Below are positions 18,888-59,981 of a stretch of DNA of 64,000 nucleotides, piece after piece. Location: contig CAWBBS010000011.1 of the NCBI GenBank assembly GCA_963787115.1, forward strand, positions 154,123-218,122. Direction: 5' to 3'. Position 1 is the stretch's first letter, and every line of letters begins with the position of its first letter. Made by a program: the position numbers and the translations under genes. Under the pieces are notes generated by a model, which ran no database searches, was not told the origin of the DNA, and worked only from the letters and a program-made list of their open reading frames with translations. Origin of the DNA: an uncultured Solirubrobacteraceae bacterium. GTDB taxonomy: Bacteria > Actinomycetota > Thermoleophilia > Solirubrobacterales > Solirubrobacteraceae.

Positions 18888-19057
18888 GGGTGACTCCTTC
18901 GCTTGGGTGGCTGAGTTTCCTGATGCGCGCACAACCGCGGCGGGGGAATGTTCGCATGGCGAGGGCGCGTCGTGCCGAGCCCGCGGGCCCGCGGCCCGGC
19001 GCCGGTATGGTTCGCGCCGCACCCACTCGCCCCAGTCGTTCGATCAGGAGGCAAAGC

Positions 19058-20068
19058 ATGGCCGCCACAAACCATCAGTTCCGTCTGGCCGCCCGTCCCG
19101 TCGGCATGCCGAAGCAGAGCGACTGGCAGTACACGGAGGAGCCCGTGGGCGAGCCCGGCGACGGCGAGGTGCTGATCCGTGTCATCTACGCGTCGATAGA
19201 CCCCGCGATGCGCGGCTGGATCAACGAGGGGCGCTCCTACATCCCGCCCGTCGGGATCGGCGAGGTCATGCGTGCGCTCGGCGCCGGCGAAGTGATCGCG
19301 TCACGGCACCCCGACCTGGCGGTCGGCGACCACGTCACGGGCCTGCTCGGGATCCAGGAGTACGCGCTGCTGCCGGCTGCGGGGCTGATCAAGGTCGACA
19401 CCTCGCTCGCGCCGCTGCCCGTGTATCTCGGCGCGCTCGGCATGCCAGGGATGACCGCGTACTTCGGGCTGATCGACATCGGGCATCCGCAGGAGGGCGA
19501 GACGGTGCTCGTCTCCGGCGCCGCGGGCGCGGTGGGCGGGCTCGTCGGGCAGATCGCCCGGATCAAGGGAGCTCGCGCGGTCGGGATCGCCGGCGGACAG
19601 GAGAAGTGCGCGCACATCGAACGCGACCTGCACTTCGACGCGGCCATCGACTACAAGTCTCAGGACGTGGCCGCGGCGATCGCACAGGAGTGCCCGAACG
19701 GCGTCGACGTGTACTTCGACAACGTCGGCGGGGACATCCTGGACGCTGCGCTGCTGCACATCAATCGCAACGCCCGCATCGTGATCTGCGGGGCGATCTC
19801 CCAGTACAACGCGATGGATGCGATGGAGGGACCGCGCAACTACATGTCGCTGCTCGTGAACCACGCCACCATGACCGGGTTCGTCGTCTCCGACTACTGG
19901 GACCGCTACTCGGAGGGCGCCGCCGCAATGGCGGGCTGGCTCGCGGCCGGGGACATCACCGCGCGCGATGACATCGCCGAGGGCATCGAGAACTTCCCCG
20001 ACACGCTGCTGCGACTGTTCCGCGGCGAGAACCTGGGCAAGCTGTCGCTGAAGATCGCGCCCGAGTGA
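19058..20068 (+). CDS. NADP-dependent oxidoreductase (PTGR/CurA-like, MDR family), paralog 1
   Basis: SIDPAMRGW, GMPGMTAYFGL, SGAAGAVG, YFDNVGG, CGAISQYN; AGGAGG RBS. Confidence 0.93.
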   Translation: MAATNHQFRLAARPVGMPKQSDWQYTEEPVGEPGDGEVLIRVIYASIDPAMRGWINEGRSYIPPVGIGEVMRALGAGEVIASRHPDLAVGDHVTGLLGIQEYALLPAAGLIKVDTSLAPLPVYLGALGMPGMTAYFGLIDIGHPQEGETVLVSGAAGAVGGLVGQIARIKGARAVGIAGGQEKCAHIERDLHFDAAIDYKSQDVAAAIAQECPNGVDVYFDNVGGDILDAALLHINRNARIVICGAISQYNAMDAMEGPRNYMSLLVNHATMTGFVVSDYWDRYSEGAAAMAGWLAAGDITARDDIAEGIENFPDTLLRLFRGENLGKLSLKIAPE

Positions 20069-20083: not shown

Positions 20084-21373
20084 CTAATAGCGCCTGACGA
20101 CCATCGTGTCCTCCGGCACAGGGGCAGCCTCCTCGGTGTCCAGGCGTTCGAGCATGCGTGTTTCGCGGGGTAGCAGTCCGAGCGCGAAGGCCACGATCGC
20201 CAGTGCCGAGCCGATGATCAGCACGTCGACAGCCCCGCCTTTCGCCGCGATCGGGCCCGCCAGCAGGTAGCCGAGCGGCATCAGCCCGCCCGAGATCATC
20301 CAGTCATAGGCGGTGACGCGCGAGAGCCTGTCGGGCGGAATCCGCTCGGCCAGCGCGGTCAGCCACCAGACGTCGAACAGCGCGATCCCCACGCCCGAGA
20401 GCGCGGTTGCGGGCACGACGATCGCCAGCGCCATGCCGGTCGCGTACATGATCGAGACGACAGGCCAGAGCAGGATCCCGAGCATCGCCATGCGCATCGG
20501 ATACCGGGGCCTCCACCCGAGACCGATCAGTGAGCCGGCGATCGTGCCGACACCCAGCGCAGCCTCGACGATGCCGTACACGCTGACGTGGCCGTACTGG
20601 CTCTTGGCGACCACCGGGCCGAGCACATACCAGGGCGAGAGCCCGAAGAAGAGGGCGGCGCAGAAGGACGCCAGCGTCGCCCACACCCAGGTGCGCGAGC
20701 GCACCTCCGCGGAGCCCTCGCGCACCGACTCCCACAGGCCCGGATGCTCCTCGCCCGCCTCCACGGGCGCGGGGCCGCTGCGCCGGCGGGGAGAGATGCG
20801 CGAGAGCAGCGCGGCGCTCACAAGGAAGGTCGCGGCGTCCAGGCCGAACGCCCACCCGGCCCCCGCGCCCAGCACCAGCACGGACGCGAGCGCTGGCCCG
20901 GCGAATTCAGCGACGTTGTTCGACATGCCCGTCAGAGCCGTGGCCTGCTGGATGTCAGCCTCAGGGACCGTCTGAGGCAACAGGCCGCTCGCGGCCGGCC
21001 GCGAGAAGGCCTCGGCGGCGCCGAACAGGACCTCGATCACGACGACCTGCCATACGCGCACCTCGCCGGAGAAGATCAGGAAGCACAGCAGCGCGTGCAG
21101 GCCGAAGCGGGTCAGGTCCGTGACGACCATGACCCGGTGGCGCGGCAGGCGGTCGGCCCACACGCCCCCGATCAGAAGGAAGATCACCAGCGAGAGGCCA
21201 TGGGCCGCCAGCACCAGGCCCAGGTCGGTCGCGCTCCCCGTCTTGTCGATGATGAACAGCGCGAGGGCGACCAGCACGATGTTGTCGCCGATGACGCTCA
21301 GCGACTGCGAGAGCCACAGCAGCCGGAACTCCCGGAACGCCAGCACCCTGCGCATGTCCTTCAGCCCGCTCAC
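20084..21373 (-). CDS. MFS transporter (DHA3/H+ antiporter-like)
   Basis: FRLLWLSQSLS..GD, GGVWADRLPR, about 12 TM helices. Confidence 0.88.
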   Translation of the reverse strand: MSGLKDMRRVLAFREFRLLWLSQSLSVIGDNIVLVALALFIIDKTGSATDLGLVLAAHGLSLVIFLLIGGVWADRLPRHRVMVVTDLTRFGLHALLCFLIFSGEVRVWQVVVIEVLFGAAEAFSRPAASGLLPQTVPEADIQQATALTGMSNNVAEFAGPALASVLVLGAGAGWAFGLDAATFLVSAALLSRISPRRRSGPAPVEAGEEHPGLWESVREGSAEVRSRTWVWATLASFCAALFFGLSPWYVLGPVVAKSQYGHVSVYGIVEAALGVGTIAGSLIGLGWRPRYPMRMAMLGILLWPVVSIMYATGMALAIVVPATALSGVGIALFDVWWLTALAERIPPDRLSRVTAYDWMISGGLMPLGYLLAGPIAAKGGAVDVLIIGSALAIVAFALGLLPRETRMLERLDTEEAAPVPEDTMVVRRY

Positions 21374-21473
21374 AGGATCAGCTTGACGAGCCAGCCGGGC
21401 GGCCGGGGGATCGCTGGCTCTATCATCGCCACGCCCGCGGTCTCTGGGCGCATTCGGTCGCAGGGGAGGAGAG

Positions 21474-23288
21474 ATGGAAGTCACAGCTGCAGGACCGGCG
21501 ACTCGCGAGGGTCTGGCGCTGGACGCGCGCACCTTCTGCGAGGCCTTTCAGAGCACGCTTGCGCTCCACTCGGGCTCGGAGGCCCTGCGCACGCTCGGCG
21601 GCGGGCGGGGCATGACGTGGGCGCAGTACGGGCAGCGTGTTCGCTCGCTCGCCGCCGGGCTGGCCGGGATCGGCGTGCGGCCGGGCGACACGGTGGCGCT
21701 GATGCTCACCAATCGCCCCGAGACGGTGCTCGTCGACAGCGCGGCGATGCACATCGGCGCGATCCCGTTCTCGATCTACAACACCTCCTCACCCGAGCAG
21801 GTCGAATATCTCCTCTCCCATGCGGGCTGCCGGGTGGTGGTGAGCGAGAGCCGCTTCGCCGGGACCGTGCTGGAGGTGGCCGGCCGGCTGGGTTCGATCG
21901 AGCATGTCTTCCTCGTCGATGGCGAGGCCATCGGGGCCGCGCCGCTGGCCCAGCTCGAGCACGCGGGGCACGAGGGCTTTGACTTCGATGCGGCCTGGCG
22001 CGCCGTCGGCCCCGGTGACGTCGCGACGCTCATCTACACCTCCGGCACGACCGGCCCTCCGAAGGCCGTGGAACTGACGCACGAGAGCCTGTTGTGGGAG
22101 CTGCGGCTGCTCGACCGCGTGTTCCCGATGCGCCCCTGCGGCCGCTCGACGTCCTACCTGCCGATGGCCCATCTCGCGGACCGCACGATCTCGCACTACC
22201 AGGCGATCGTCTCCGGCGCGTGCGTGACCTTCGTCCCCGACGTCACCCAGGTGATAGGAGCGCTCGTGGAGGTTCGCCCGACGTTCTGGGGAGCCGTGCC
22301 CAGAGTCTGGGAGAAGCTCAAGGCCGCGCTCGAGGCGGGCTTCGCGGCCGAGCAGGACCAGGCGCTGCGCACGGCGCGCGCGAACGCGCTCGCCGAGGCG
22401 ATCGAGATAGTCCGCGCGGAGCAGGCGGGGGAGAGCGTGCCCGTCGAGCGCCTGCGCGGCCGCGACGCGGCCGACGCCGAGTTCTTCGCCCCGCTGCGCA
22501 CCATGCTCGGCCTCGACGAGGCCGAGTTCCTGATCTCCGGCGCGGCGCCGATCGCCGAGGAGGTGCTCGAGTTCTTCTTCGCGCTGGGGCTCCCCATCTG
22601 CGAGATCTGGGGGATGACGGAGACATCGCTGATCGCCACCAGCAATCCGCCGCAGCGGATCAGGATCGGCACCGTGGGGCCGGCGCTGCCGGGGGTCGAG
22701 GTCTCGCTGGCGCAGGACGGGGAGCTGCTGGTCAGGGGACCGATCGTGATGCGCGGATACCGCGGCGAGCAGGAGCTCACCGAGCAGACGATCGACGCCG
22801 ACGGCTGGCTGCACACCGGCGACGTCGCCGAGATCGACCCCGACGGCTATGTCCGCATCGTCGACCGCAAGAAGGAGCTCATCATCAACGCGGCCGGCAA
22901 GAACATGTCGCCGGCGAACATCGAGAACCGGATCAAGGCGGCCTGCCCGCTCGTCGGGAGCGTCGTTGCGATCGGCGACCGCCGGCCCTTCAACACCGCG
23001 CTCGTCGTGCTCGATCCCGTGGCCGTCGGGGCCTTCGCCGCCGCCCACGACCTCAGCGGCACATCGCCCGCTGAGCTCTCGCGCGATCCGGCCGTTCAGG
23101 GCGCCGTCCTCGCGGGCATCGAGCGCGCCAACGCCGCGCTCAGCCGCGTAGAGCAGATCAAGCGCCACACGATCCTGCCCGAGGAGTGGCAGCCCGGGGG
23201 CGATGAGCTGACGCCGACGATGAAGCTCAGGCGCCGTCCGATCGCCGAGAAGTACAGCGCCGAGATCGAGGCCATGTACGCCGGCTAG
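21474..23288 (+). CDS. Long-chain fatty acid-CoA ligase (AMP-dependent synthetase)
   Basis: YTSGTTGPPK, WGMTE, WLHTGD, DRKKELII, ELTPTMKLRR. Confidence 0.93.
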   Translation: MEVTAAGPATREGLALDARTFCEAFQSTLALHSGSEALRTLGGGRGMTWAQYGQRVRSLAAGLAGIGVRPGDTVALMLTNRPETVLVDSAAMHIGAIPFSIYNTSSPEQVEYLLSHAGCRVVVSESRFAGTVLEVAGRLGSIEHVFLVDGEAIGAAPLAQLEHAGHEGFDFDAAWRAVGPGDVATLIYTSGTTGPPKAVELTHESLLWELRLLDRVFPMRPCGRSTSYLPMAHLADRTISHYQAIVSGACVTFVPDVTQVIGALVEVRPTFWGAVPRVWEKLKAALEAGFAAEQDQALRTARANALAEAIEIVRAEQAGESVPVERLRGRDAADAEFFAPLRTMLGLDEAEFLISGAAPIAEEVLEFFFALGLPICEIWGMTETSLIATSNPPQRIRIGTVGPALPGVEVSLAQDGELLVRGPIVMRGYRGEQELTEQTIDADGWLHTGDVAEIDPDGYVRIVDRKKELIINAAGKNMSPANIENRIKAACPLVGSVVAIGDRRPFNTALVVLDPVAVGAFAAAHDLSGTSPAELSRDPAVQGAVLAGIERANAALSRVEQIKRHTILPEEWQPGGDELTPTMKLRRRPIAEKYSAEIEAMYAG

Positions 23289-23850: not shown

Positions 23851-24690
23851 CTACAGCTCGAAGATCGTGCCCTCGGCCCCCACGAGAACGGGCGGCGTGT
23901 GGCCGGTGAAGCGGGCGGCCAGCTGATCGAGCTCGTCGTCCGTGCGGTCCGAGCGGTGGTGAAAGAGCACGACCGTCCCCGCGCCCGCGCGCGTCCCGAG
24001 CCCCACGCCGTAGTCGGCGACCGCGTGCCCGTACACCGCCATCTCCTCCTCGTCGGGCAGCAGCTGCGCATCGTGCAGCAGCAGGTCGGCGCCGGCGGCG
24101 AGCTCGAGGGCCGCAGGGTGGTACTCACCGAACCCGTCCTCGCCGGGGCCGAGGACCGTGGGGCAGTGATCCGGCATGTAACACAGCGTCGAGCGCCCAT
24201 CGCTGATGCGGTAGCCGAACGTGCGCCCGCCCTTGTGCGGCACCTCGCATGCGAGGACCGTGAAGCCCTGGAGCTCGTGCTCGCCCGGGGCGAGCGTGTC
24301 GAAGCGCCAGTCGCCCCGCAGCGCCGTCGGGCCGACGGGGAAGTAGGGGGGGCGCATGATCCCCGAGAGCACTTCGACCGCGTCTCTGCCGTCGGCCTGC
24401 TCGGGGAGCAGAAGGTGAACCGCCGCGGTGTCATCGTCGCCCCTCGGGAAGAACGGCAGCCCCGTGGAGTGGTCCCAGTGCAGGTGCGAGAGCAGGATCG
24501 TGCCCCGGAAGGGCGATCCGTTCAGCAGCTTGTGCACCTGCTGCAGGCCGATGCCGGCATCGAGGACCAGGCTCGGAGCGGCGGCGCCGTCATGCGCGAT
24601 GGCGACGCACGCGGTGTGCCCGCCGTAGCGAATGAACTCGAATCCGGGCGCGGGCGTGGAGCCGCGCACTCCGCAGAGATGGACCCGCAA
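23851..24690 (-). CDS. MBL-fold metallo-hydrolase (RNase Z/cyclic-nucleotide PDE-like subfamily)
   Basis: GVRGSTP, YGGHTACV, LDAGIG, SHLHWDH (HxHxDH), YMPDH, HDAQ, LFHH. Confidence 0.9.
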   Translation of the reverse strand: MRVHLCGVRGSTPAPGFEFIRYGGHTACVAIAHDGAAAPSLVLDAGIGLQQVHKLLNGSPFRGTILLSHLHWDHSTGLPFFPRGDDDTAAVHLLLPEQADGRDAVEVLSGIMRPPYFPVGPTALRGDWRFDTLAPGEHELQGFTVLACEVPHKGGRTFGYRISDGRSTLCYMPDHCPTVLGPGEDGFGEYHPAALELAAGADLLLHDAQLLPDEEEMAVYGHAVADYGVGLGTRAGAGTVVLFHHRSDRTDDELDQLAARFTGHTPPVLVGAEGTIFEL

Positions 24691-24915: not shown

Positions 24916-26691
24916 TCAGCTCGGGTCCGGGATCGTCCAGACGGGAAGCTTCTCGGTGCGTCCGCGGATGTCCAGCTCGCCATACAGTTCGAGCTGCTGC
25001 GGCGGGTGCTCCAGCCGGTCGCGCGTGGACTGCGCCACGAAGAGCATGTGGCCGGTCCCCTTGGTCATGCCCTCCAGGCGCGAGGCCGTGTTGGTCGTGT
25101 CGCCGAGTGCCGTGTATTCGACGCGCCGCTCGGAGCCGATGTTCCCGGCCATCACCGGGCCGCTGTTCAGCCCCACACCCATGCGGAAGCGGTGCTCGTG
25201 CCCCTCCTGGCCGAGCCAGTCGTTGAAGCCGTCCAGCCGCGGCCCGATCATCTCGATCGCGGCGGTGAGCGCCCGATCGGCGTGGTCGGTCTGCTCGAGC
25301 GGCGCGCCGAACACGGCCATGATCCCGTCGCCCATGTAGGAGATCAGCGTGCCGCCGGCATCCTGGATCGCTTCGGTCATTTCGTTCAGGTAGGTGTTGA
25401 CGACGTCGATCACGCGCGAGGCCGGCTGCGTCTCGGAGAAGCTCGTGAACCCGCGCAGGTCGGAGAACAGCACCGTGCAGTCGCGTTCGACTGCGCCGAG
25501 GCGCAGGTTGTCGTCGGTTCGCGCGACCACCTGGGCGATCACGTCGGGAGGCACGAACCGCGCGAACAGGTCGTGCACCCGCTCGCGCTCGATCGCCTCG
25601 CTGAGGTAGACGACCGCGAGCGTGCCGAGCGAGGCAATCGCGAGCGCCAGCAGCGGATAGACCACGGAGACGATGCGCCCGTTGTTGAACGCGAACTGGG
25701 CCGCGACCGTGAAGATGATCGCGCCGGCGAGCGCGGCCAACAGCGAGCGAAGCGGCGGAAGCCGCAGGCTCGCGAGCGGGGCTATCGCTCCGATCGCGAT
25801 GATCAGCAGGACGTCGACCCAGGCCGGGACGCCGCGGAGCGGCACCCCCCGCTGCAGTGTCGAGACGGCGTTGGCCCAGAGTTCGGGCCCGGACATGACC
25901 AGGCCGTTGGTGGTAGCGGTCGAGTGCACGTCCTGCAGCACCGGCGCCGTCGCTCCGAGGATCACGGTCTTGCCACGGAAGGCGTTCGCCGGATAGTTCC
26001 CGGTCAGGACCTTCGAGTAGGAGATCGACCTGAAGGTTTCCGGCGGCCCCACGAAGTCGATCGGAAGGGTCCCGTCTTCGAACAGCGAGGCGTGCACCAG
26101 CTTCCCGGTCTCGACTTCGTTCGTCACGACCCCGAAGCTCTTGAGGTGGTGGTCCTGGAAGGGGAAGCGCCTGACGGTGCCGTCGCTGTCGACGGTGAGC
26201 CTCGCACTGGCGGGGCGCGCGCCGATTTCGGCGAGCAGCCCGTTGCCGCCGAGTATCTGTGTTTCCCCGTTGGTGCCGACCGAGGTCGTCGTCAGGACGG
26301 TGCGTCCGTGCGCGCGCCCGATCGCTTCGATCAGTTCGTTGTCTTCGGTTTCATTGGTCTGCTGGGTGAACTGAAGGTCGATGGCGATCACCCGTGCTCC
26401 GCCCTCGCGCAGGCGGTCGATGACCTTGGCGTCGTACTTGCGGGGGAAGGGGAACTCCGAGGCCAGTTTCCTTTCGTTCATTTCCTGCAGGGAGGCGTTG
26501 TCGATCGCCACGATGACGATGTTCGCGGGGGGCGTCTCGGGCCCGCGCACCGAGAAACGGGCATCGATGGTCTGCTCTTCACTGCGCCGGAGCAGGTTGG
26601 TCGCGTAGGCGACCACGCCGACACCGCATGCCACAAAGGCCACCACCAGGAGCAGCGCAGCCTTGCGGCGGCGCCAGGCTGCGCGGCCCAC
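24916..26691 (-). CDS. CHASE2-domain class III nucleotidyl cyclase
   Basis: N-terminal TM; CHASE2 (IVIVAID, FPRKYDAKVI, MSGPELWANA); three TMs; cyclase motifs LFSDLRGFT, GDGIMAVFG, GDTTNTASRLE. Confidence 0.93.
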   Translation of the reverse strand: MGRAAWRRRKAALLLVVAFVACGVGVVAYATNLLRRSEEQTIDARFSVRGPETPPANIVIVAIDNASLQEMNERKLASEFPFPRKYDAKVIDRLREGGARVIAIDLQFTQQTNETEDNELIEAIGRAHGRTVLTTTSVGTNGETQILGGNGLLAEIGARPASARLTVDSDGTVRRFPFQDHHLKSFGVVTNEVETGKLVHASLFEDGTLPIDFVGPPETFRSISYSKVLTGNYPANAFRGKTVILGATAPVLQDVHSTATTNGLVMSGPELWANAVSTLQRGVPLRGVPAWVDVLLIIAIGAIAPLASLRLPPLRSLLAALAGAIIFTVAAQFAFNNGRIVSVVYPLLALAIASLGTLAVVYLSEAIERERVHDLFARFVPPDVIAQVVARTDDNLRLGAVERDCTVLFSDLRGFTSFSETQPASRVIDVVNTYLNEMTEAIQDAGGTLISYMGDGIMAVFGAPLEQTDHADRALTAAIEMIGPRLDGFNDWLGQEGHEHRFRMGVGLNSGPVMAGNIGSERRVEYTALGDTTNTASRLEGMTKGTGHMLFVAQSTRDRLEHPPQQLELYGELDIRGRTEKLPVWTIPDPS

Positions 26692-26807: not shown

Positions 26808-26929
26808 TTAGATTCGAGAGCGTCGCTAAAGGTCGCATGGGCGTGGCTCGCAGTCCGCGGGCATTATTTAGCCATATAGAGCTTCGGAGGAGTGAGACGC
26901 CCGGTACCCCGGGCTCTTTTTGTATAGGC

Positions 26930-29900
26930 ATGGATCGCTCGACAACTATCCCGAAGACGGACACCACGCAGCGCATGCCGCGTCTGCTGATCGCTGCGGC
27001 GGTGCTCTCGGTGCTGCTAGGCACCTGGCTCGCGGGCGTCATCGCGGGCGCCAGCCAGGGCGGCCGCACTCCGGCCGCGGCCTCGCATGCCGCGTCGCTG
27101 GAGTCACTCGGACCCGCCTCCGCCCTGCCGATCTCTCAGGCCGTCGGCCGCGCCGACCCCGCCTACCACGCCACCGCCTCGGCTGCAGGTGCGAGCTTCT
27201 CGACACCGGCCCAGGCAATGAGCGAGAACTTCTCGAGCGCCGGTGTGACGGTGCACGCCGGTGCCCTCGCGCTCGGACTCGACCTCACCGGAGTGGGCAC
27301 GAGCACGGCCCTCGCCCCCGTCGCGCAGACCGCGCCGACAGCGACAGGCAACCGGGTGCTCTATTCGCGCGGCGCCGTCAGCGAGTGGTATGTGAACGGT
27401 CCCGCCGGCCTGGAGCAGGGATTCACCGTCGCGAGCGCTCCGGCGGGCTCGGGTCCGCTGACGCTGGGGCTCACGATCTCGGGCAACGCGAGCGCGCACG
27501 CGGGCACCACACCGCAGAGCATCGACTTCAAGGGTCCCGCCGGCAAGCTTCTGCGCTACGGCGACCTCAGGGCCGTCGACGCGGCCGGGCACCCGCTCAG
27601 CGCTCGTCTGGCGATTCACGGGCGGACGCTGCAGATAGAGGTCAACACCAGCGGAGCGCGCTTCCCGGTGCGGATCGACCCGCTCGTCCAGCAGGGTGGC
27701 AGGCTCTCGGAAGGCAACGAAGGGCTGTTCGGGTTCAGTGTCTCCCTGTCCGCAGACGGCAACACGGCGCTCGTGGGAGCGCCCCGCACACCCCTGAACA
27801 GGTTCGCCGGCACCGCGTGGGTCTTCACGATGACCTACACGGGGTGGGCCGAGCAGGCCGAATTCGGCACCAGCGAACCCGGCGGTTCATTGTCACCGGA
27901 ATGCGCGGCCGCGCCTGAACACTGCAGCATCGGGACCAGCGTCTCGCTTTCGGCCGATGGCAACACCGCGCTGGTGGGGGCGCCCTCGCCGCGCAAGAAC
28001 GGCTATCACGGCCAGGTGTTCGTCTACACGCGCGAAGGGACCGTTTGGACCCGTACCGCCACCCTCCTCGCCGGCAGCGAACAGGCCGGCGGCGGTGGCT
28101 TCGGACAGGGCGTGGCGGTGTCGGCGGACGGCACGGAGGCGATCGTCGGGGCTCCCCAGGACCTCTCCAACCGCGGCTCCGTCTGGATCTTCCAGCGCAG
28201 CGGCTCCACCTGGTCCCACGACGGGGGCCTGCTGAACGGCGGGAAGGCCGAGGTCGGGCCCGGTCACCTCGGCTACAGCGTGGCCATCGACGGGAACACG
28301 GCGATCGCCGGGGCGCCCGATGACGGCAGCGCACAATCCGGAGCGGTATGGGACTTCACTCGAACCAGTTCAGGCTGGACGCTGCCCGGCAACAAGATCG
28401 TCGCCCCCGGAGCAGGCTCCGGTGCGCACTTCGGCTACAGCGTCGCGCTCGCGGGTGAAAGGGCGATCGTCGGCGCCCCCGGTGCCGCCGCGGGGGCCGG
28501 TGTGGCGTGGGGCTTCACCCAGGCCACCGCCGCCCTCGACGAACCCTTCGAAATCACGGGCTCAGGTGAGGTCGGCGCGGGAGCATTCGGATCGTCGGTC
28601 GCGCTCTCCGGTGACGGCCACACCGCGCTCATCGGCGCCCCTGGCGACAGCTCGGGCGCCGGCGCGGCCTGGCTGTTTGGGAGCTCGGGAGGCGCCTGGA
28701 CGACGCTCCAGCAACTCGGGAGCGGTGAAGCTGAACAGCTCAAATTCGGTACCAGCGTCGCACTGTCAGGCGACGGGACGAGTGCCCTGGTCGGAGGCGC
28801 GCCGGAAGAATCCCGCATGGGCGCGGTGTGGTCCTTCGGCCACGCGGTGGCTCCCGTCGTGGGCGCCGTGCACCCGGAATCGGGTCCGGTCGCCGGTGGC
28901 ACGACCGTCGTGATCGAAGGCAGCGGCTTCAAAGCCGGTGCGACCGTCACGATCGGCACGGCAGCGACCTCGGTGAAGGTGATCTCCACCAGCAAGATTC
29001 TCGCCACGACGCAGGCGAACCCGGCAGGCTCCGATGAGGTCATCGTCAGCGACTCGGGAGGGACCTCGACGGGTGGTCCGCTGTTCACCTTCACCCCGCC
29101 CAAGCCGCCCGCGCCGACCGTCACCTCCGTGGAACCGTCGTCCGGGCCCGCAGCCGGCGGCAGCGAAGTGACGATCACGGGCACGGGCTTCGTCTCCGGC
29201 GCGGCCGTGGTGATCGGCAGCCCCGCCGAATCGGTGAACGTCATCTCCTCGACTGAAATCCGCGCCGTCACAGCGGCCACGCCCGCAGGCTCGGACGAAG
29301 TCGTGGTGAGCGACGCCAACGGAACCTCCGAAAACGGCCCGTCCTTCACCTACACCAGTCCTCCCCCCGCCCAGGAAAAGACCACCACCACTTCCACCAC
29401 CACGACGACGACCACCACGACGACGACTCCGACGCCTCACATCGCGGCCTCCGGCGTCCTGGGCTCCAGCGAACAGGAACTCCCCGCTCCGGTGCTCGCG
29501 ACCAGCGGCAACATCAAGCGGGTGACGGGCACCATCTACATCAAGCTCCCGGGCAGCAGCGGCTTCACCGTCCTCAGCCCGCAGGCGCATGTCCCGTTCG
29601 GGACGGTCATCGACGCCACCAGCGGTCACGTCCAGGTCATCACCGCGGGACCCAGCGGGCCGGAGACCATCACCTACTACGGCGGCGTCTTCAAGCTGAC
29701 CCAGAGCAGGAAGGGCTCGGTCATCGCGACCCTCACCGGCGGCAGCCGCGTCGGCTGCCCGGTCGCGAAAAGGAACACCCGCCACCTCGACAGCGACGGC
29801 GACTTCGACAACGACTCATACGCCCGGGCTGCGCGCTCCACCAAACGCGTGGTGCGCAAACTGTGGTCCGAAGGCCACGGGCACTACACGACGAAGGGCA

Positions 29901-30064
29901 GCTACGCCACGGGAGCCGTCCTCGGGACCCGCTGGCTCACCGAGGATCTCTGCGACGGCACCCTGATCCACGTCTCGACCGACATGGTCCTGGTTACGAA
30001 CCTGCGCACCCACCGCAAGGTGATCGTCAGGGCCGGGCACAGCATCTTCGTCAAAGCCCCCTGA
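26930..30064 (+). CDS. Large secreted protein: N-terminal beta domain, FG-GAP repeats, two IPT/TIG domains, Thr-rich linker, FecR-like C-terminal domain
   Basis: Signal-like LLIAAAVLSVLLG; repeated FGxSVxLSxDGxTALVGAP; two PxVxxVxPxSGPxAGGxxVxIxGxGF units; C-terminal GTRWLTEDLCDGT..V..V..RAG. Confidence 0.85.
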   Translation: MDRSTTIPKTDTTQRMPRLLIAAAVLSVLLGTWLAGVIAGASQGGRTPAAASHAASLESLGPASALPISQAVGRADPAYHATASAAGASFSTPAQAMSENFSSAGVTVHAGALALGLDLTGVGTSTALAPVAQTAPTATGNRVLYSRGAVSEWYVNGPAGLEQGFTVASAPAGSGPLTLGLTISGNASAHAGTTPQSIDFKGPAGKLLRYGDLRAVDAAGHPLSARLAIHGRTLQIEVNTSGARFPVRIDPLVQQGGRLSEGNEGLFGFSVSLSADGNTALVGAPRTPLNRFAGTAWVFTMTYTGWAEQAEFGTSEPGGSLSPECAAAPEHCSIGTSVSLSADGNTALVGAPSPRKNGYHGQVFVYTREGTVWTRTATLLAGSEQAGGGGFGQGVAVSADGTEAIVGAPQDLSNRGSVWIFQRSGSTWSHDGGLLNGGKAEVGPGHLGYSVAIDGNTAIAGAPDDGSAQSGAVWDFTRTSSGWTLPGNKIVAPGAGSGAHFGYSVALAGERAIVGAPGAAAGAGVAWGFTQATAALDEPFEITGSGEVGAGAFGSSVALSGDGHTALIGAPGDSSGAGAAWLFGSSGGAWTTLQQLGSGEAEQLKFGTSVALSGDGTSALVGGAPEESRMGAVWSFGHAVAPVVGAVHPESGPVAGGTTVVIEGSGFKAGATVTIGTAATSVKVISTSKILATTQANPAGSDEVIVSDSGGTSTGGPLFTFTPPKPPAPTVTSVEPSSGPAAGGSEVTITGTGFVSGAAVVIGSPAESVNVISSTEIRAVTAATPAGSDEVVVSDANGTSENGPSFTYTSPPPAQEKTTTTSTTTTTTTTTTTPTPHIAASGVLGSSEQELPAPVLATSGNIKRVTGTIYIKLPGSSGFTVLSPQAHVPFGTVIDATSGHVQVITAGPSGPETITYYGGVFKLTQSRKGSVIATLTGGSRVGCPVAKRNTRHLDSDGDFDNDSYARAARSTKRVVRKLWSEGHGHYTTKGSYATGAVLGTRWLTEDLCDGTLIHVSTDMVLVTNLRTHRKVIVRAGHSIFVKAP
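29386..29433 (+). repeat. ACC/ACG low-complexity repeat encoding a poly-Thr linker
   Basis: Translates as TTTTSTTTTTTTTTTP between the second IPT domain and the C-terminal domain. Confidence 0.8.
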
Positions 30065-30076: not shown

Positions 30077-33000
30077 TCAGACCCGCACGACCGTCCGGCG
30101 CCCGGCGAGGTCGGCTGAACCTCCGCCGGCGGCGGTGAGCCAGGAGGGCGCCTGTTCCAGCGCTGCAACCGCGGCACGCCGCCCGGCCTCGCGGGCGTGG
30201 TCGATCTGGTGGAACTCGAGCAGTCCGACACCCGACACGCGCACCGCGATCGTCAGGTCGGCGAGGCGCTGGGCGGCATCATCGGTGTTCGCGCTGCTCA
30301 GCAGGGCGATCCGCCCGAGCGTCTCCGGCAGCGAGGGCAGGCGCCGGCGGGGCTCGCCCCCGTCGCGGCCCTCGCGGGGACCTGTCCGCTCCTCGCCGCC
30401 CTTGATGTCGATCGCGAGCACCGGCCCCTCGCCGGCCTGGCTCATCGGCTCGAGCGGCAGGTTGTCCAGCAGTGATCCATCGATCAGCAGTTCATCGTCG
30501 TTGCGGATCGGCGGCGCGATCAGGGGAAGGGACATGCTCGCTCCCACCGCCTCGAACAGCGGGCCGCTGCGGCTGATCACCAGGCCGCTGCGGCGCAGGT
30601 TCACGCTCGCGCAGTAGAAGGGCCGGGAGAGATCCTCCACGTAGGACTCCCCGAAGACCCGTTCGAGCATCGCCCGCGCCTTGTTGCCCCTGATCAGGCC
30701 TGCGCGCGGCAGCGTGTAGTCGTTGATCGGATTGCGCCTGACCCACTCCTCATAGCAGCAGGCATCGATCGCGGGGACGTCCCGGCCCATCGCAAGCTGG
30801 CCGCCGATGAAGGCGCCCATCGAGACGCCGCCCACGCGGTCGACGGGCATGCCGGCTTCCACCAGGACCTCAAGGACGCCGAGGTGCGCGAATGCCCTTC
30901 CGCCTCCCCCGCTCAGCACGACGCCGAGTGCGCGGCCGGACAGGCGCCTGGCCATACGCTCGACGTCCGCGCGCAGCCCGGGACCGGCGGAGATGGCATG
31001 CACGCCCGCAGGAGCGAGCTCGGTCAGCCAGCCCGCGAGCTCGCCCGAGCCCTCACGGATGCCGTAGCCGACGAGGTCCGCACCGCGCAGGCCGCTCGCC
31101 CACGAGCGCGGGCTGTCCTGCGCGCCGACGGGGGCAGGTCCCGCGACAACCGCCAGAACGCGGTCGGCGCGCGAGACACAGAACTCATCCCACGCGCTCG
31201 GCTCCACGCCCTGCCCGCAGACCATGATGACCTGGTCGTGCTCGAGCTCGCAGCTCTCAACGAGCGGTCCGTAACGGGCGGCCGCCTCGGCGCGGGAGGC
31301 GGGCGCCAGCGCGCCGTCCCCGTCCTCTCGCGGATAGAGGACCGCGACCCGGCCGTGGTGGCACAGCGCCCGGCTGAGCTCATCGGCGAGCTCGAGCAGC
31401 GGGACCCCGGGCCCCGCAGCCCGCATGGCGATCGTGACGGGCCTTGCCCGCTTGACAGCCGGTATCGCGCGGCTCGCCTGGAGCTGTGTGCTGAGAACCC
31501 TGGTCAGGCTGAGCGCGAGCTCGGGCTCGGAGCGCAGCAGGGCGTCGAAGTGCGGCCTGTCGATTCGCAGCAGCTCGGTGTCGCGCAGGGCCCTGACGGC
31601 GGCGCTGCGCGCAGAGCCGCTGAGCAGCGCGAGCTCGCCGAGCACCGCACCGCGCGTGAGCGTGTTGATCGTCTGCTCGCTCTGCTCGCCGTTGTCTGAG
31701 AGGACCTCCCGCACGACCTCAAGGTGCCCGACCCGCACCAGGTACACCGCGTCGGCCGGGTCGCCCTCGCGGAACAGCCACTCGCCCCTCGGGAGCGTGA
31801 CGTCGGCGGTGATGTCGGCCACGCGCTCGAGCATCGCGGGCGACAGGTCCGCGAACACCGGGGCGTTGCGCAGGAACTCGGCCACGGGCTGGGGGGCGGC
31901 GGCCGCATGGACGCCGTCGGACTCCGCGAGGCTCGGCAGCTCGGCCGCGGTCGCCGGCCCGGTGGAGAGGCCGTCCGCGAGGCCGCCGGCGAGTCTCTCC
32001 CCGGCGGGGCGCTCGTCCTCCTCGGCCGGCTTGGCGACCACGAGCCCCAGGCAGGCGATGGCCCCGAACAGGAAGCAGCCGCACGCATACAGCCAGCCGT
32101 TCTGGAACGTGTGCAGTGCTTTGGTGAGCGCGGTGCTCTCGAGCGCCGCCAGCAGCGGAGCGGGCAGGCCGCGGGGGAGGGACGGAGCCGATCCGTTGCC
32201 GACGATCGCGATCAGGACCGCGACCCCTAGGGCCGCGCCGATCTGGCGGGCGACGGCGTTCAGGGATGTCGCCAGGGCGAAGCGCGGCCCGGGCACCGAT
32301 TCGACGGCGGCGCCGCTGAGGGTCGGGAAGGAGAGCCCTGCGCCTATGCCGAGGATGACCATGCCGGGGAGCCACTGCCCGAGGAAGTCGGGCCTCACGC
32401 CTAGCTGCGTTGCGAAGAACGCCGCGCCGGCAGCCCAGATCAGCGCGCCCGGGACCGCGACCGCCCGGTGGCCGAGCCTGGAGACCGCCCGGCTTGCGGG
32501 CGCCGCCACGGCGATCGCCACGAGCGGGCCGGGGGTCAGCGACAGGCCGGCCTTCAGGATCGAGTACTGCCACACGCTCGTCAGGAACAGGACGTTGCAG
32601 AGCGTGTAGCCGAAGAAGCCGCTCGCCATCACGACGGTGACGCCGTTGGAGAGTGCGAACGAGCGTATGCGCAGCAGCGTGAGGTCCACGACCGGCGTGC
32701 GCTGGCGGGCCGTGCGCAGCACGAAGTAGACCCCGAGCGCGAGCGTCAGGGCGAAGGCGCCGATGATGCGGGGGCTCGTCCAGCCCCATTCCTGGCCCTT
32801 GACGATCGCGAGCACGAGCGTCGCGATCGCCAGGGCGAGCACGACGCCGCCGACGAGGTCCGGCACGCGCCTGCGGCCGGGTGCACGGCTCTCGATGAGG
32901 ACGCGGCTCGCCAGCACGTAGGCGGTGATCCCGATGGGGATGTTCACCAGGAACACCAGCCGCCAGTTGGAGGCGGTGATCAGGATGCCTCCGAGAGCGG

Positions 33001-33541
33001 GCCCGGTGCCGGCGGCGAGCGCAGCGATGGCCGCCCACAGCGAGACGGCGTGGGTGCGCCTCGTGCCCGGGTAGGCCTCCAGGACGATCGCCAGCGAGCT
33101 CGGCACGAGGGCTGCGGCCCCGGCCGCCTGCAGCACGCGCGCTGCCACGAGCAGGCCGAGGGTGGGCGCGACCGCGCATGCTGCGGACGCGAGCGTGAAG
33201 AGGATCAGCGCGGCGCAGAAGATGCGCCTGCGGCCCAGCAGGTCGGCGAGCTGGCCTCCGCCCACCAGGAACGCGGCGAACACGATGTTGTAGGCGTTCA
33301 GCACCCACGAGACGCTCTCCAGCGAGGACCCCGCGAAGTCCTGGTGGATGTTGGGGATCGCGATGTTGACGATCGTCGCGTCGACGAACGCCATGAACGT
33401 GCCGAGGGCCGCGACGGCCAGCACCCTTCCCGGCGAGGAGATCCGTCGTGTGCGCGGCTCCGGCGCGATCGACGCAGGTTCCGCGAGCACGCTCACCGAT
33501 CGCCCCCGCGACGGCTCGCATCCCGCACCCATCCCTGACAT
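30077..33541 (-). CDS. DHA2 MFS transporter - cyclic-nucleotide-binding domain - patatin-like phospholipase fusion (start uncertain)
   Basis: 14-TM MFS (DATIVNIAIP, WVLNAYNI); CNBD (LFREGDPAD, GELALL...RSAAVRA); patatin (LSGGGGRAFAH, GVSMG, DGSL). Confidence 0.92.
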   Translation of the reverse strand: MSGMGAGCEPSRGRSVSVLAEPASIAPEPRTRRISSPGRVLAVAALGTFMAFVDATIVNIAIPNIHQDFAGSSLESVSWVLNAYNIVFAAFLVGGGQLADLLGRRRIFCAALILFTLASAACAVAPTLGLLVAARVLQAAGAAALVPSSLAIVLEAYPGTRRTHAVSLWAAIAALAAGTGPALGGILITASNWRLVFLVNIPIGITAYVLASRVLIESRAPGRRRVPDLVGGVVLALAIATLVLAIVKGQEWGWTSPRIIGAFALTLALGVYFVLRTARQRTPVVDLTLLRIRSFALSNGVTVVMASGFFGYTLCNVLFLTSVWQYSILKAGLSLTPGPLVAIAVAAPASRAVSRLGHRAVAVPGALIWAAGAAFFATQLGVRPDFLGQWLPGMVILGIGAGLSFPTLSGAAVESVPGPRFALATSLNAVARQIGAALGVAVLIAIVGNGSAPSLPRGLPAPLLAALESTALTKALHTFQNGWLYACGCFLFGAIACLGLVVAKPAEEDERPAGERLAGGLADGLSTGPATAAELPSLAESDGVHAAAAPQPVAEFLRNAPVFADLSPAMLERVADITADVTLPRGEWLFREGDPADAVYLVRVGHLEVVREVLSDNGEQSEQTINTLTRGAVLGELALLSGSARSAAVRALRDTELLRIDRPHFDALLRSEPELALSLTRVLSTQLQASRAIPAVKRARPVTIAMRAAGPGVPLLELADELSRALCHHGRVAVLYPREDGDGALAPASRAEAAARYGPLVESCELEHDQVIMVCGQGVEPSAWDEFCVSRADRVLAVVAGPAPVGAQDSPRSWASGLRGADLVGYGIREGSGELAGWLTELAPAGVHAISAGPGLRADVERMARRLSGRALGVVLSGGGGRAFAHLGVLEVLVEAGMPVDRVGGVSMGAFIGGQLAMGRDVPAIDACCYEEWVRRNPINDYTLPRAGLIRGNKARAMLERVFGESYVEDLSRPFYCASVNLRRSGLVISRSGPLFEAVGASMSLPLIAPPIRNDDELLIDGSLLDNLPLEPMSQAGEGPVLAIDIKGGEERTGPREGRDGGEPRRRLPSLPETLGRIALLSSANTDDAAQRLADLTIAVRVSGVGLLEFHQIDHAREAGRRAAVAALEQAPSWLTAAGGGSADLAGRRTVVRV

Positions 33542-45190: not shown

Positions 45191-46192
45191 TCAGACCTTC
45201 ACGATCACCTTGCCGGTGTTGCCGCCGGTGAAGAGGAGGTTCAGGGCGTCGGGGGCGTGCTCGAGCCCCTCCACGATGTGCTCGGCAGCCTTGATCCGGC
45301 CTTCCGCGAGCCAGCCGCCGATCTGGGCCTGAGCCTCCGCGTAGCGATCCACGTAGTCGAGGATGATGAAGCCCTCCATCCGCCCGCGCCGGACGATCAG
45401 CATCGTGTAGTTGGAGGGTCCGGGGGCGTTGCGCTCGTTGTAGCCGGAGATCGCCCCGCACAGGACGACGCGCCCGCGCATCGCGATGTTCGCCAGCGCC
45501 GCGTTCAGGATCTCGCCGCCGACGTTGTCGAAGTACACGTCGATTTCGGGCGCCTCCGCTTTCAGGCGCCTGCGCACATCCTCGGACTTGTAGTCGATGG
45601 CGACGTCGAAGCCCAGCTCGTCCACGATCCACGCGCACTTCTCCGGCCCGCCGGCGATCCCGACCACCTTCGACGCGCCCTTGATCTTTGCGATCTGCCC
45701 GACCGTCGAGCCGGTCGCCCCGGCCGCGCCGGAGACCACCACCACATCGCCCTCGGCGACCTTGCCGACGTCGATGAGGCCGAAGTAGGCCGTCATGCCC
45801 GTCATCCCGAAGACGCTCAGCGCGGACGTCGGGGCTACGCCGGCGGGGAGACGCTGCATCCTGCTGGCGCCCTCGTCCGCGATCGCGTAGTCCTGCCAGC
45901 CGGTCATCCCGAACAGCAGGTCCCCGGGGGAGTACCTGTCGGAGTTGCTCTCGAGCACCTCGGCGACTCCTCCCGCGCGGACGACCTCGCCGATGCCGAT
46001 CGGAGGCAGATACCCGGGCGCGTCGTTCATCCAGGTGCGGATCGTCGGGTCGATCGAGATGTAGCGCACGCGCGTGAGCGCCTCGCCCTTCCCGGGCACC
46101 GGGATCTCGCCCTCCTCGATTCGAACGGTGCTCTCGTCGACCATCGCGGTGGGTCGCTCGGCTAGGACAAGGCGGCGGTTGCGCTCGCTCAC
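45191..46192 (-). CDS. NADP-dependent oxidoreductase (PTGR/CurA-like), paralog 2
   Basis: SIDPTIRTW, GMTGMTAYFGL, SGAAGATG, YFDNVGG, CGAISGYN. Confidence 0.92.
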   Translation of the reverse strand: MSERNRRLVLAERPTAMVDESTVRIEEGEIPVPGKGEALTRVRYISIDPTIRTWMNDAPGYLPPIGIGEVVRAGGVAEVLESNSDRYSPGDLLFGMTGWQDYAIADEGASRMQRLPAGVAPTSALSVFGMTGMTAYFGLIDVGKVAEGDVVVVSGAAGATGSTVGQIAKIKGASKVVGIAGGPEKCAWIVDELGFDVAIDYKSEDVRRRLKAEAPEIDVYFDNVGGEILNAALANIAMRGRVVLCGAISGYNERNAPGPSNYTMLIVRRGRMEGFIILDYVDRYAEAQAQIGGWLAEGRIKAAEHIVEGLEHAPDALNLLFTGGNTGKVIVKV

Positions 46193-46339
46193 GGTCTCTC
46201 CCCCTCCTGGCCGGGCCGCGGGGCCCGGCGTCGATTTCTCGCGCCGGCGGCGCCGCGTCGATGTTATCCGCCGGGCGCCGGCGCTCAGATCGCTGGGGTC
46301 AACCGGTTGCCCCGAGACACTCATCGCGCGGCTGCGATC

Positions 46340-53077: not shown

Positions 53078-53161
53078 GCGGGCGTGGTGAAATGGTAGAC
53101 ACGTCAGATTTAGGTTCTGGTGGCGAAAGCCGTGGGGGTTCAAGTCCCTTCGCCCGCACCA
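53078..53161 (+). tRNA. tRNA-Leu(TAG)
   Basis: GCGGGCG/CGCCCGC acceptor, loop TT-TAG-GT, variable arm, GGTTCAAGTCC, encoded CCA; directly upstream of tig. Confidence 0.95.
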
Positions 53162-53229: not shown

Positions 53230-54587
53230 ATGCAGGTTACCGAGACGCTCTCCGACGGTCTGAAGCGCGGCTACACGTGTCGTTCTGCCCGTCGCTGACC
53301 TGGAATTGCGCCGCACCGAGCGTCTGACCACCCTGGGGAAGACCCTGCGTATCCCCGGCTTCCGTCCGGGCAAGGTGCCCATGCCGATCGTCAGGCAGCG
53401 CTATGGCACCGCGGTGTCGGCCGAGATCCTGGAGGAGTCCGTTAACCAGGCGACGCAGAAGGTGCTCAGCCGAACGTGGACTGCGCCCGGCGCAGCAGCC
53501 CAAGGTCGACATGGTGACGGAAAACCCCACGGCGCTGACCGGCGACCTCGAATTCAAGCTCGAGCTGGAACTGATGCCGGACATCGTCCTGCCGGATTTC
53601 AGCCCATCGAGCTGACCCGCGTCAAGGCCGAGGTCGCCGCCCGAGGCAATCGACAAGGCGCTGGAACAGATCGCCAGGTCGCACCGCACGCTCGAGCCGA
53701 TCGCGGCGGAAACGATCGAGCGCGCGGCTACGGCGCGGCGGCCGGCGAGGCCTCACCATCGATTACGTGGGCAAGATCGACGGCGTCCCATTCGAGGGCG
53801 GCACCGCCAACGACACGCCGGTCGAGATCGGCGGGACGGGGTTCATCCCGGGGTTCGCCGAACAGCTTGAGGGCGCCCGGCCGGGCGAGACCCGGACGAT
53901 CAACGTCACCTTCCCCGAAAACTATGGCAAGGCTGACCTGGCCGGCAAAGCCGGCGACGTTCGAGATCACGGTCAAACAGGTCAGCACCCAGATCATCCC
54001 CGCCATCGACGACGAACTGGCCAAGAGGTCGGCGCCGACGACATCGCGGCGGTGCGCAAGATCGTCGTCTCCCGCCAGCAGCAGGAATTCGACGCAGTCA
54101 CGCCGCATGCGGCTGAAGAAGGATCTGCTCGACGCGTTGACCGGGCTGGCCGACTTTCCCGGTGCCGGCGTCCATCGCCGATCAGGAATTCGATCAGATC
54201 TGGCAGCAGTTCGAGCAGCCCGCAAGGCCGGCACGCAGGACGAAGAGGACAAGGGCAAGGACGAGGACACCCTGAGGGCCGGACTACAGCGGGATCGCCG
54301 ACGGCGCGTCCGGCTCGGGCTGTTGCTGGCGGAAATCGGCCGGGTCAACAACATCAGCGTCTCCGAGCAGGAGTTGGACCGCGCGCTGTATCAGCGGGCG
54401 ATGCAGTATCAGGGGCAGGAGCAGCAGATGTATGAGTTCTTCCGGAAATACCCGCAGGCTGACCAACAGCGTGCGCGGCCCGCTGCTCGAGGACAAAGTC
54501 GTGGACTTTGTGCTTGAACTGGCCAAGGTTACCGATACCATCGTCACGCCGGAGGAACTGCTGAAGGAACCGGCGCGGCCGCGCTGA
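53230..54587 (+). CDS. tig: Trigger factor (multiple apparent frameshifts)
   Basis: MQVTETLSDGLKR, PGFRPGKVP, FEGGTA, FIPGFAEQL, RVRLGLLLAEIG, spread over several frames. Confidence 0.9.
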
Positions 54588-59927: not shown

Positions 59928-59981
59928 AAGCCGTCCAAATGGCACCGGCTCGGCCCCGCCGTCACTGCACCTGGCTCTAAA

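Follow-up and report, generated by a model that had tools for sequence, protein, structure and literature searches.

The CHASE2 receptor class III nucleotide cyclase encoded in the window (the whole stretch of DNA that was analysed, 64,000 nucleotides from an uncultured Solirubrobacteraceae bacterium) has a serine, Ser451, in the column where class III cyclases carry an adenine-specifying Lys or a guanine-specifying Glu. Loss of this Lys, with a small residue in its place, is a trait of the family to which the protein belongs, and this orthologous family is large and near-universal in Solirubrobacterales. With slightly better than even confidence, we infer that the enzyme acts on a purine nucleotide, most probably converting ATP to cAMP, with a weaker reading of the base. 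The rule that Lys means ATP and Glu means GTP is in routine use for class III cyclase annotation and for optogenetic engineering. In the order-wide family of receptor cyclases described here, every catalytic residue is kept while any small residue is tolerated at that column; if the product is cAMP, the family is a useful warning against substrate inference from this single column. The family also bears on base selection in the absence of Lys, on the role of Glu525 and on the second messenger with which abundant soil bacteria answer a CHASE2 signal.

Serine at the specificity position of an intact cyclase

The protein has the layout of a CHASE2 receptor cyclase, with an N-terminal transmembrane helix and the CHASE2 domain followed by three clustered transmembrane helices and an output domain (Table 1), and is collinear over its full length with CyaK of Sinorhizobium meliloti (E 1e-52, 30% identity across 580 residues), a CHASE2 receptor adenylate cyclase that takes part with CyaD1 and CyaD2 in cAMP-Clr signalling. 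A FecR-domain gene precedes CyaK, whereas the neighbourhood of the window cyclase differs. The catalytic domain reaches 84.6 bits against the class III profile PF00211 (cut-off 21.9) and a phmmer search of the PDB matched it to 60 solved class III structures, the best being those of Cya2 (2w01, 7e-31; 6fht, the E488K variant, 2e-33), followed by OaPAC (1e-23), CyaB, CyaC (4e-21) and bPAC (2e-18). Cya2, a guanylate cyclase of Synechocystis, also has a CHASE2, transmembrane and cyclase layout. GC3 of the cyclase gene is 0.90. An AlphaFold2 model of the full-length protein, built with a 17-sequence alignment, was too poor for pocket analysis or a fold search (mean pLDDT 46, pTM 0.31).

Table 1. 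Features of the cyclase and its neighbours, in window coordinates
Feature	Position	Strand	Details
CHASE2 receptor class III nucleotide cyclase gene	24916..26691	-	591 aa; ORF
N-terminal transmembrane helix, aa 11-29	26605..26661	-	Kyte-Doolittle 19-residue window, score 2.57
Extracytoplasmic CHASE2 sensor domain, aa 26-303	25783..26616	-	Pfam PF05226, 4e-39, 135 bits, cut-off 26.3
Three transmembrane helices, aa 291-309, 317-335, 343-361	25609..25821	-	Hydropathy peaks 2.19, 2.16, 2.25
Class III cyclase catalytic domain, aa 404-580	24952..25482	-	Pfam PF00211 (Guanylate_cyc), 8e-24
LFSDLRGF motif, aa 408-415	25447-25470	-	Contains metal Asp D411
Metal-binding Asp411	25459..25461	-	Asp in 248/249 family sequences
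GGTLISYMGDG motif, aa 446-456	25324-25356	-	Contains metal Asp D455
Ser451 (codon TCC), column of adenine-specifying Lys / guanine-specifying Glu	25339..25341	-	Aligns with Cya2 488, OaPAC Lys, CyaK Lys
Metal-binding Asp455 (GDG)	25327..25329	-	Asp in 247/249
Glu525, two residues ahead of second specificity residue	25117..25119	-	Glu 221, Asp 13 of 249; equivalent to bPAC D265
Thr527, second specificity position, seven residues ahead of Asn534	25111..25113	-	Thr 212, Ala 32, Ser 4 of 249
TTNTASR motif, aa 532-538	25078-25098	-	Contains N534 and R538
Transition-state Asn534 + Arg538 (NTASR)	25078..25092	-	Asn 247/249, Arg 245/249
Metallo-beta-lactamase-fold gene, 279 aa	23851..24690	-	Pfam Lactamase_B_2; 225 bp downstream of cyclase, same strand
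FG-GAP/TIG repeat protein, 1075 aa, divergent	26837..30064	+	Pfam FG-GAP_2, TIG
MFS transporter + cNMP-binding domain + patatin-like lipase fusion, 1154 aa	30077..33541	-	Pfam MFS_1, cNMP_binding 2e-20, Patatin
CNB domain of MFS/patatin fusion, aa 582-671	31529-31798	-	Pfam cNMP_binding

The original prediction had claimed an intact catalytic core, and our results bear this out, with both metal-binding Asp residues and the transition-state Asn and Arg present in the motifs where it had placed them, and each kept in at least 245 of 249 family sequences. Its assignment of Ser to the specificity position is equally supported. The plus-strand triplet GGA at this position corresponds to the minus-strand codon TCC, and the phmmer alignments set the segment ggtlisymgdg opposite ggtidKfmgdg in the E488K variant of Cya2 and ggtidEfmgdg in the wild type without gaps, and opposite ggevtKfigd in OaPAC. 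The alignment to Cya2 runs without a gap across the two metal Asp motifs, with GDG in both proteins, and residue 488 of Cya2 is its base-specificity residue (PMC5995499). BLASTP against CyaK, also ungapped here, pairs GGTLISYMGD with RGTIDKYIGD, so that CyaK keeps the canonical Lys where the window protein has Ser. A register shift is impossible, because Ser451 stands four residues ahead of the invariant metal Asp. At its first specificity position, then, the enzyme has neither the Lys of a canonical adenylate cyclase nor the Glu of a canonical guanylate cyclase. A Lys elsewhere in the pocket, which the original prediction had named as evidence that would speak against it, was not found either: the adenine-cleft residues F455/V496/I499/L504/L567/V568/V572 of ATP-analogue-bound CaAC (PMC5967339) map to F409/I450/M453/M458/A528/L529/T533, with no Lys or Arg among them.

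Small residues at position 451 across the family

In the family alignment of 249 catalytic domains, position 451 is Ala in 111 sequences, Ser in 97, Thr in 16, Asp in 10, Lys in 6, Gly in 5, Asn in 3 and Cys in 1. Lys is absent from 243 of them, Ala, Ser and Thr together account for 224, and none has Glu. The six sequences with Lys form one exclusive and distant clade, at 41.5% identity or less. Orthologues were found in 241 species-level genomes, and the 80 loci retained are all from Solirubrobacterales; at 78 species-level loci of this order, Ala was found 47 times, Ser 29 times, Thr and Cys once each and Lys never. The original prediction had left conservation of Ser within the clade as a point to check, and Ser is not conserved. 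The constraint is on a small residue (Ala more often than Ser, and Ser more often than Thr) with frequent switching between Ala and Ser, and at least 25 changes among Ala, Ser and Thr fall within the close clade (at least 65% identity). The four closest distinct homologues, which are 81-92% identical to the window protein along its full length and 87-93% within the catalytic domain, do have Ser451. P0001 is a recorded protein of identical sequence, and in the block 446-460 of the 17-sequence alignment, positions 451 and 460 are the sole non-conserved ones.

The probability that Ser451 is a sequencing or assembly artefact at a single codon is negligible. Fragmented housekeeping genes at 54-64 kb of the window suggest indel errors, but the reading frame of the cyclase is unbroken across 591 codons, and Ser or Ala is common to every close homologue, from independent assemblies, which refutes this explanation.

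Base recognition and the probable product

At the second specificity position the window cyclase has Thr, not Asp, as class IIIb enzymes do, and this Thr527 corresponds to D566 of CaAC. The class IIIb enzymes bPAC and OaPAC, Spirulina CyaC and Slr1991 share with it the Thr, the acidic residue two positions before and the catalytic residues, but all of them retain the Lys that the window protein has lost. CyaK is alike in type at the other two specificity positions (Asp and Ser, against Glu and Thr), whereas the triad of Cya2 is Glu488/Lys/Gly against Ser451/Glu525/Thr527. Judged from these alignments, Glu525 and Thr527 are adenylate-cyclase-like and of class IIIb type, with Glu525 standing here without a Lys partner. 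Positions 451 and 525 covary, since in 9 of the 10 sequences with Asp451, position 525 is Ala, Gly, Lys or Arg. CyaK and Cya2, both characterised CHASE2 cyclases, tell little about the Lys-less pocket, because each keeps its specificity residue (Lys and Glu, respectively).

In the reading that we favour, cAMP from ATP, the protein would be a working membrane receptor cyclase whose cytoplasmic catalytic domain should form a head-to-tail homodimer. The family would descend from class IIIb-type adenylate cyclases with a Lys/Asp-or-Glu/Thr triad, and in this family the Lys that reads adenine N1 has given way to any small residue, be it Ala, Ser or Thr. Hydrogen bonds from the adenine N6 amino group could still be accepted by Thr527 and by the Ala528 backbone carbonyl, as in CaAC, where these bonds go to residue 566 (D566) and the backbone O of residue 567 (PMC5967339), and the hydrophobic cleft formed by F409, I450, M453, M458 and L529 would be unchanged. 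Loss of Lys would remove the N1 donor only, so that a higher Km and looser discrimination between ATP and GTP would be expected, not a new product. Conversion of bPAC to a guanylate cyclase used K197E/D265K/T267G (PMC4569695), and at the positions mutated in D265K and T267G the window protein, with Glu525 and Thr527, holds the adenylate cyclase state. Lys-to-Ala mutants of Rv1625c and of the class IIIb enzyme Slr1991 are still assayable adenylate cyclases (PMC2613629), and the characterised S. meliloti CHASE2 cyclases signal through cAMP (PMC13001267). Our literature search found no characterised member of the Lys-less clade and no report of a CHASE2 cyclase without Lys.

The mycobacterial enzymes Rv1900c (Asn-Asp) and Rv0386 (Gln-Asn) are natural Lys-less class III cyclases that act mainly as adenylate cyclases with some GTP turnover, and this precedent is a reason to prefer cAMP with weaker base reading as the explanation. 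They differ from the window family in having other domain architectures and polar, medium-sized replacements and in being single genes, whereas the Solirubrobacterales family is order-wide and toggles between Ala and Ser. The side activities reported for both enzymes count against a plain cAMP reading, and guanine could be favoured by Glu525, whose unneutralised carboxylate would lie next to the Watson-Crick edge.

A guanylate or dual-specificity purine cyclase is a less likely alternative. Glu525, on the neighbouring strand, would take the N1-H/N2-H2 bonds of guanine and the Thr527 hydroxyl would donate to O6, the two residues mimicking from another position the Glu and Cys/Ser/Thr pair of guanylate cyclases. 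Glu or Asp is kept at position 525 in 234 of 249 sequences although the Lys partner is lost, and the charge covariation described above shows that the side chains at 451 and 525 are pocket neighbours. The triads of some branches, Asp/Lys/Thr or Asp/Arg/Thr, resemble the Glu/Lys/Gly of Cya2, the nearest solved structure is that of this same guanylate cyclase, and guanylate cyclases accept Cys, Ser, Thr, His, Ala or Gly at the second position (PMC4215837). However, Glu never occurs in the canonical column of the family, and Glu or Asp at 525 is also found in the Lys-bearing outgroup and in the canonical class IIIb enzymes OaPAC and CyaK, so it is ancestral and no new adaptation. Furthermore, GTP use by bPAC required a change from the acidic residue to Lys at the equivalent of position 525 (PMC4569695). 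A broader proposal seems to us less likely still, namely that CHASE2 cyclases of the Solirubrobacterales make up a natural guanylate or dual purine family in which guanine is read by Glu525 on beta5, together with Thr527, and not by the canonical Glu on beta2. If this is true, the specificity determinant would have been relocated, and cGMP signalling would be widespread in an actinobacterial order that is dominant in soil.

It is also conceivable, if improbable, that the protein is a catalytically weak or silent subunit, which either functions only when paired with a Lys-bearing paralogue in a heterodimer or serves as a pseudo-enzyme sensor. In other cyclases, mutation of the Lys costs much of the activity, and some genomes have two copies of the gene, with loci L002 and L003 coming from the same metagenome-assembled genome. 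Yet all four catalytic residues are strongly conserved, which is unexpected for a dead domain, no Lys was found at any locus read among the 80, including all those at 79-82% identity (a range that covers L002 and L003), and no Lys-bearing partner is encoded nearby. A Pycsar-like pyrimidine cyclase making cCMP or cUMP is more doubtful even than this. The canonical purine-reading Lys is missing, PycC shares the fold and the catalytic Asp pair with the window cyclase, and the catalytic domain is matched by PycC models of PADLOC (best PDLC00734, 6.5e-25, 86 bits), but this score is no better than that of the generic PF00211 profile and the match would therefore reflect the shared fold only. PycC pockets are narrowed by bulky, purine-excluding residues (Y50/D94/R97, F100/R142/Q144 and F60/K104/F109; PMC11224242; bioRxiv 2026.08.12.744502), whereas the pocket here is enlarged by Ser or Ala at 451, with ordinary hydrophobics at the other cleft positions. 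PycC is paired in a two-gene defence operon with an adjacent cNMP-activated effector, TIR or TM, while the genes adjacent to the window cyclase encode metallo-beta-lactamase-fold and FG-GAP/TIG proteins and the window holds no defence genes; the CHASE2 membrane receptor architecture and the conservation of a chromosomal gene across an order likewise argue against a Pycsar function. The original suggestion of cGMP, a pyrimidine cNMP or a mixture is thus narrowed to the guanylate or dual purine alternative discussed above, since the enlarged pocket and the missing defence context speak against a pyrimidine product and the absence of Glu against a canonical guanylate cyclase.

Neighbouring genes

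The original prediction also suggested that the neighbouring cNMP-binding domain could read the product, a link that our results show to be weak. The gene for the MFS/cNMP-binding/patatin fusion lies 3.4 kb from the cyclase, beyond a divergent gene; of 80 related loci, only 20 have it within 8 kb of the cyclase. The phosphate-binding cassette of its binding domain (GELALL...ARSAAV) is intact and reads R-S-A, PKG and PKA regulators match the domain about equally, and the cassette does not discriminate between cAMP and cGMP. The fusion is encoded by a conserved chromosomal gene and its product is a candidate cNMP reader, only weakly linked to the cyclase. At 78 of the 80 loci the cyclase has upstream of it, on the other strand, a gene similar to the one for the FG-GAP/TIG protein, a count that repeat similarity may inflate. 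As a cognate phosphodiesterase, the metallo-beta-lactamase-fold protein has sub-threshold matches only, to RNase Z (35 bits, cut-off 293) and to NF041851, a model of cyclic-nucleotide-degrading phosphodiesterases (27 bits, cut-off 400). Its gene is a conserved neighbour of the cyclase: at 65 of the 80 loci it lies on the cyclase strand, no more than 8 kb downstream.

The specificity position of the window cyclase

The window cyclase belongs to the class III cyclases and to the CHASE2 receptor cyclases, and its second specificity position resembles class IIIb. It carries neither the lysine that defines canonical adenylate cyclases nor the glutamate that defines guanylate cyclases. By hydropathy a single transmembrane helix spans aa 11-29 and three more lie within aa 291-361, and the predicted topology is the usual one for CHASE2 receptors, with a cytoplasmic output domain. 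Its nearest relatives all come from metagenome-assembled genomes of Solirubrobacterales (Actinomycetota), and the G+C content of the window is 69%.

The motifs quoted in the original prediction were all located: LFSDLRGF holds the metal-binding D411, GGTLISYMGDG holds S451 and the second metal aspartate, D455, and TTNTASR holds the transition-state residues N534 and R538. The triplet at 25339-25341, GGA on the plus strand, reads TCC on the minus strand and encodes Ser451, as had been claimed. A phmmer search against all PDB sequences returned the CHASE2-regulated cyclase Cya2 as top match, and GGTLISYMGDG paired without gaps with GGTIDEFMGDG of the wild-type guanylate cyclase (2w01) and with GGTIDKFMGDG of its E488K adenylate cyclase variant (6fht), residue 488 being the base-specificity residue of Cya2 (PMC5995499). 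The OaPAC segment opposite GGTLISYMGD, GGEVTKFIGD, also aligned without gaps (phmmer), and full-length BLASTP set the lysine of S. meliloti CyaK (RGTIDKYIGD) opposite Ser451. The register is thus secure, with Ser451 in the lysine column of Cya2 E488K, OaPAC and CyaK. CyaK, one of the CHASE2 cyclases driving cAMP-Clr signaling (PMC13001267), has Lys in this column and Cya2, likewise a characterized CHASE2 cyclase, has Glu; the window cyclase has Ser.

Features of the window discussed in the text
Feature	Position	Strand or orientation	Size	Remarks
CHASE2 receptor class III cyclase	24916-26691	-	591 aa	ORF encloses the interval of the original prediction
CHASE2 sensor	aa 26-303 of the cyclase			Pfam, 4e-39
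Class III cyclase catalytic domain	aa 404-580 of the cyclase			Pfam, 8e-24
Metallo-beta-lactamase (MBL)-fold gene	23851-24690	-	279 aa	225 bp downstream of the cyclase, same strand
FG-GAP/TIG repeat protein	26837-30064	+	1075 aa	Thr-rich linker; divergent from the cyclase
CNBD protein	30077-33541	-	1154 aa	MFS transporter, cNMP-binding domain and patatin-like lipase (Pfam)
Oxidoreductase/MFS pair 1	18890-20068, 20084-21532	convergent
Oxidoreductase/MFS pair 2	45191-46390, 46307-48007	divergent

Loss of lysine across the family

Among the 120 closest scorable database proteins (65-100% identity), position 451 is Ala in 74, Ser in 42 and Thr in 2. After addition of 150 representatives of 50%-identity clusters, drawn from a 1.8-billion-protein library, the family alignment comprised 249 complete catalytic domains, with Ala in 111, Ser in 97, Thr in 16, Asp in 10, Lys in 6, Gly in 5, Asn in 3 and Cys in 1. 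Lys occurs only in the six most distant of the 249 sequences (at most 41.5% identity), which form one exclusive clade in a neighbor-joining tree computed without column 451. Lys was found in none of 78 species-representative genome loci, whose specificity triads are Ala/Glu/Thr (47), Ser/Glu/Thr (29), Thr/Glu/Thr (1) and Cys/Glu/Thr (1). The absence of Lys is a trait of the family and not a one-off. Serine itself is not conserved in the clade, as Ala is commoner and parsimony requires at least 25 Ala/Ser/Thr changes at this position within the close clade; because these residues dominate and interchange, the constraint is for a small residue rather than for Ser. Positions 451 and 460 are the sole ones below 90% conservation in block 446-460 of a 17-sequence alignment. 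The core reported as intact in the original prediction was confirmed, and retention of D411, D455, N534 and R538, each in 245-248 of the 249 domains, shows clearly that catalysis is under selection in this Lys-less family. Individual bacterial cyclases with non-canonical specificity residues are known, such as Rv1900c and Rv0386, and literature searches found no report of a Lys-less CHASE2 cyclase family.

Nucleotide pocket and probable product

The structure of CaAC with a bound ATP analogue was used as key for the pocket; there, adenine N1 receives its hydrogen bond from K497, N6 is the donor to D566 and to the L567 backbone O, and F455, V496, I499, L504, L567, V568 and V572 form a hydrophobic cleft (PMC5967339). 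Positions were transferred through invariant anchors (D1-2, D2-4, D2-5, D2-2, D2+3 and Asn-7 to Asn-1), that is, by motif offsets and without superposition; the predicted structure model had a mean pLDDT of 46 and was unusable. On this mapping S451 stands at the Lys position, T527 and A528 face N6, and the cleft is made up of F409, I450, M453, M458, A528, L529 and T533. At the sequence level none of the mapped adenine-pocket positions holds Lys or Arg, in keeping with the claim of a pocket devoid of the adenine-specifying lysine.

We lean slightly towards cAMP as the product, made with weakened base reading, because Glu525 and Thr527 are in the adenylate cyclase state, the N6 acceptors and the cleft appear intact by motif offsets, and Lys-to-Ala mutants of two other cyclases retain some activity. 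To make bPAC a guanylate cyclase, three substitutions were needed, K197E, D265K and T267G (PMC4569695), and at the latter two sites the window cyclase retains the adenylate cyclase state; adenylate cyclase activity was still measurable in Lys-to-Ala mutants of Rv1625c and class IIIb Slr1991 (PMC2613629). The cGMP suggested by the original prediction fails in its canonical form, since a canonical guanylate cyclase needs Glu at the Lys column and this was found in 0 of 249 sequences, but survives as the main rival, improbable though credible, in which the family is guanylate or dual-specificity, the unneutralized Glu525 carboxylate and the Thr hydroxyl reading guanine at its Watson-Crick edge. 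Glu525 is conserved (Glu in 221 and Asp in 13 of 249) even though its usual salt-bridge partner is lost, and position 525 covaries by charge with 451: of the 10 sequences with Asp451, 9 have Ala, Gly, Lys or Arg there. Both side chains are therefore neighbors in the pocket. However, an acidic residue at 525 is ancestral, occurring also in the Lys-bearing outgroup, OaPAC and CyaK. A pyrimidine product, also proposed originally, is unlikely. Characterized Pycsar cyclases pick UTP or CTP via bulky residues that narrow the pocket, including one at the Lys column (R142 of EaPycC, four residues before D146; PMC11224242; bioRxiv 2026.08.12.744502), whereas Ser or Ala at 451 enlarges it, and the cyclase gene has no effector partner; the window holds no defense genes, its remaining genes being ordinary metabolic and housekeeping ones.

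In the branches with Asp at 451 (P0142, P0158, P0179, P0198, P0222, P0268 and others), Glu at 525 is thus replaced in 9 of the 10 sequences. Their Asp/Lys/Thr and Asp/Arg/Thr triads recall guanylate cyclase signatures, and natural guanylate cyclases may exist within the family. The product of a Lys-less CHASE2 cyclase is a clean, cheap biochemical question, and an unusual answer is a genuine prospect, though less likely than not.

Neighboring genes

The proposal that the product is read by the neighboring CNBD protein is weak. The CNBD gene lies 3.4 kb upstream of the cyclase, with the divergent FG-GAP/TIG gene between them, and occurs within 8 kb in at least 20 of 80 related loci, a lower bound set by the 8 kb flanks examined. 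Its phosphate-binding cassette is intact (GELALL...ARSAAV), but PKG and PKA regulatory domains match the CNBD about equally, so that it identifies no particular nucleotide. The gene is not firmly tied to the cyclase. The MBL gene is the better conserved neighbor, as 65 of the 80 loci have a homologue no more than 8 kb downstream; the MBL protein of the window matches RNase Z and NF041851, 'cyclic nucleotide-degrading phosphodiesterase' (27 bits, cut-off 400), only below threshold, and could be a cognate phosphodiesterase or reflect merely conserved gene order. Of the 80 loci, 78 have an FG-GAP/TIG-like gene upstream of the cyclase on the other strand, a count that repeat similarity may inflate; its product may act as a partner of the CHASE2 sensor or present a ligand to it. 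In the proteobacterial CHASE2 cyclase loci of S. meliloti cyaK (L081, 1-1042) and a Methylocystis plasmid gene (L082, 1-351), a large FecR-domain gene directly precedes the cyclase; the window cyclase is flanked by none.

Metagenome-assembled genome CAWGWU01 holds two cyclase copies on different contigs (loci L002 and L003, respectively 81% and 79% identical to the window cyclase) in the same neighborhood of CNBD, FG-GAP, cyclase, MBL and cupin genes, the result of segmental duplication or of a bin that mixes strains. The window also contains two alike pairs of an ADH_N_2/ADH_zinc_N oxidoreductase adjoining an MFS transporter, which appear to be a duplicated two-gene module. Past tRNA-Leu (53078-53161), G+C falls from about 70% to 62-64.5% over 54000-64000, and the housekeeping genes of this stretch (tig, clpP, clpX, lon, nuoB-E) look split over several ORFs and frames, with clpX broken at about 56170, lon at about 58100 and the nuoD match ending at position 69 of a 271-position profile that it follows from the start, which suggests assembly indel errors, a chimeric join or pseudogenes.
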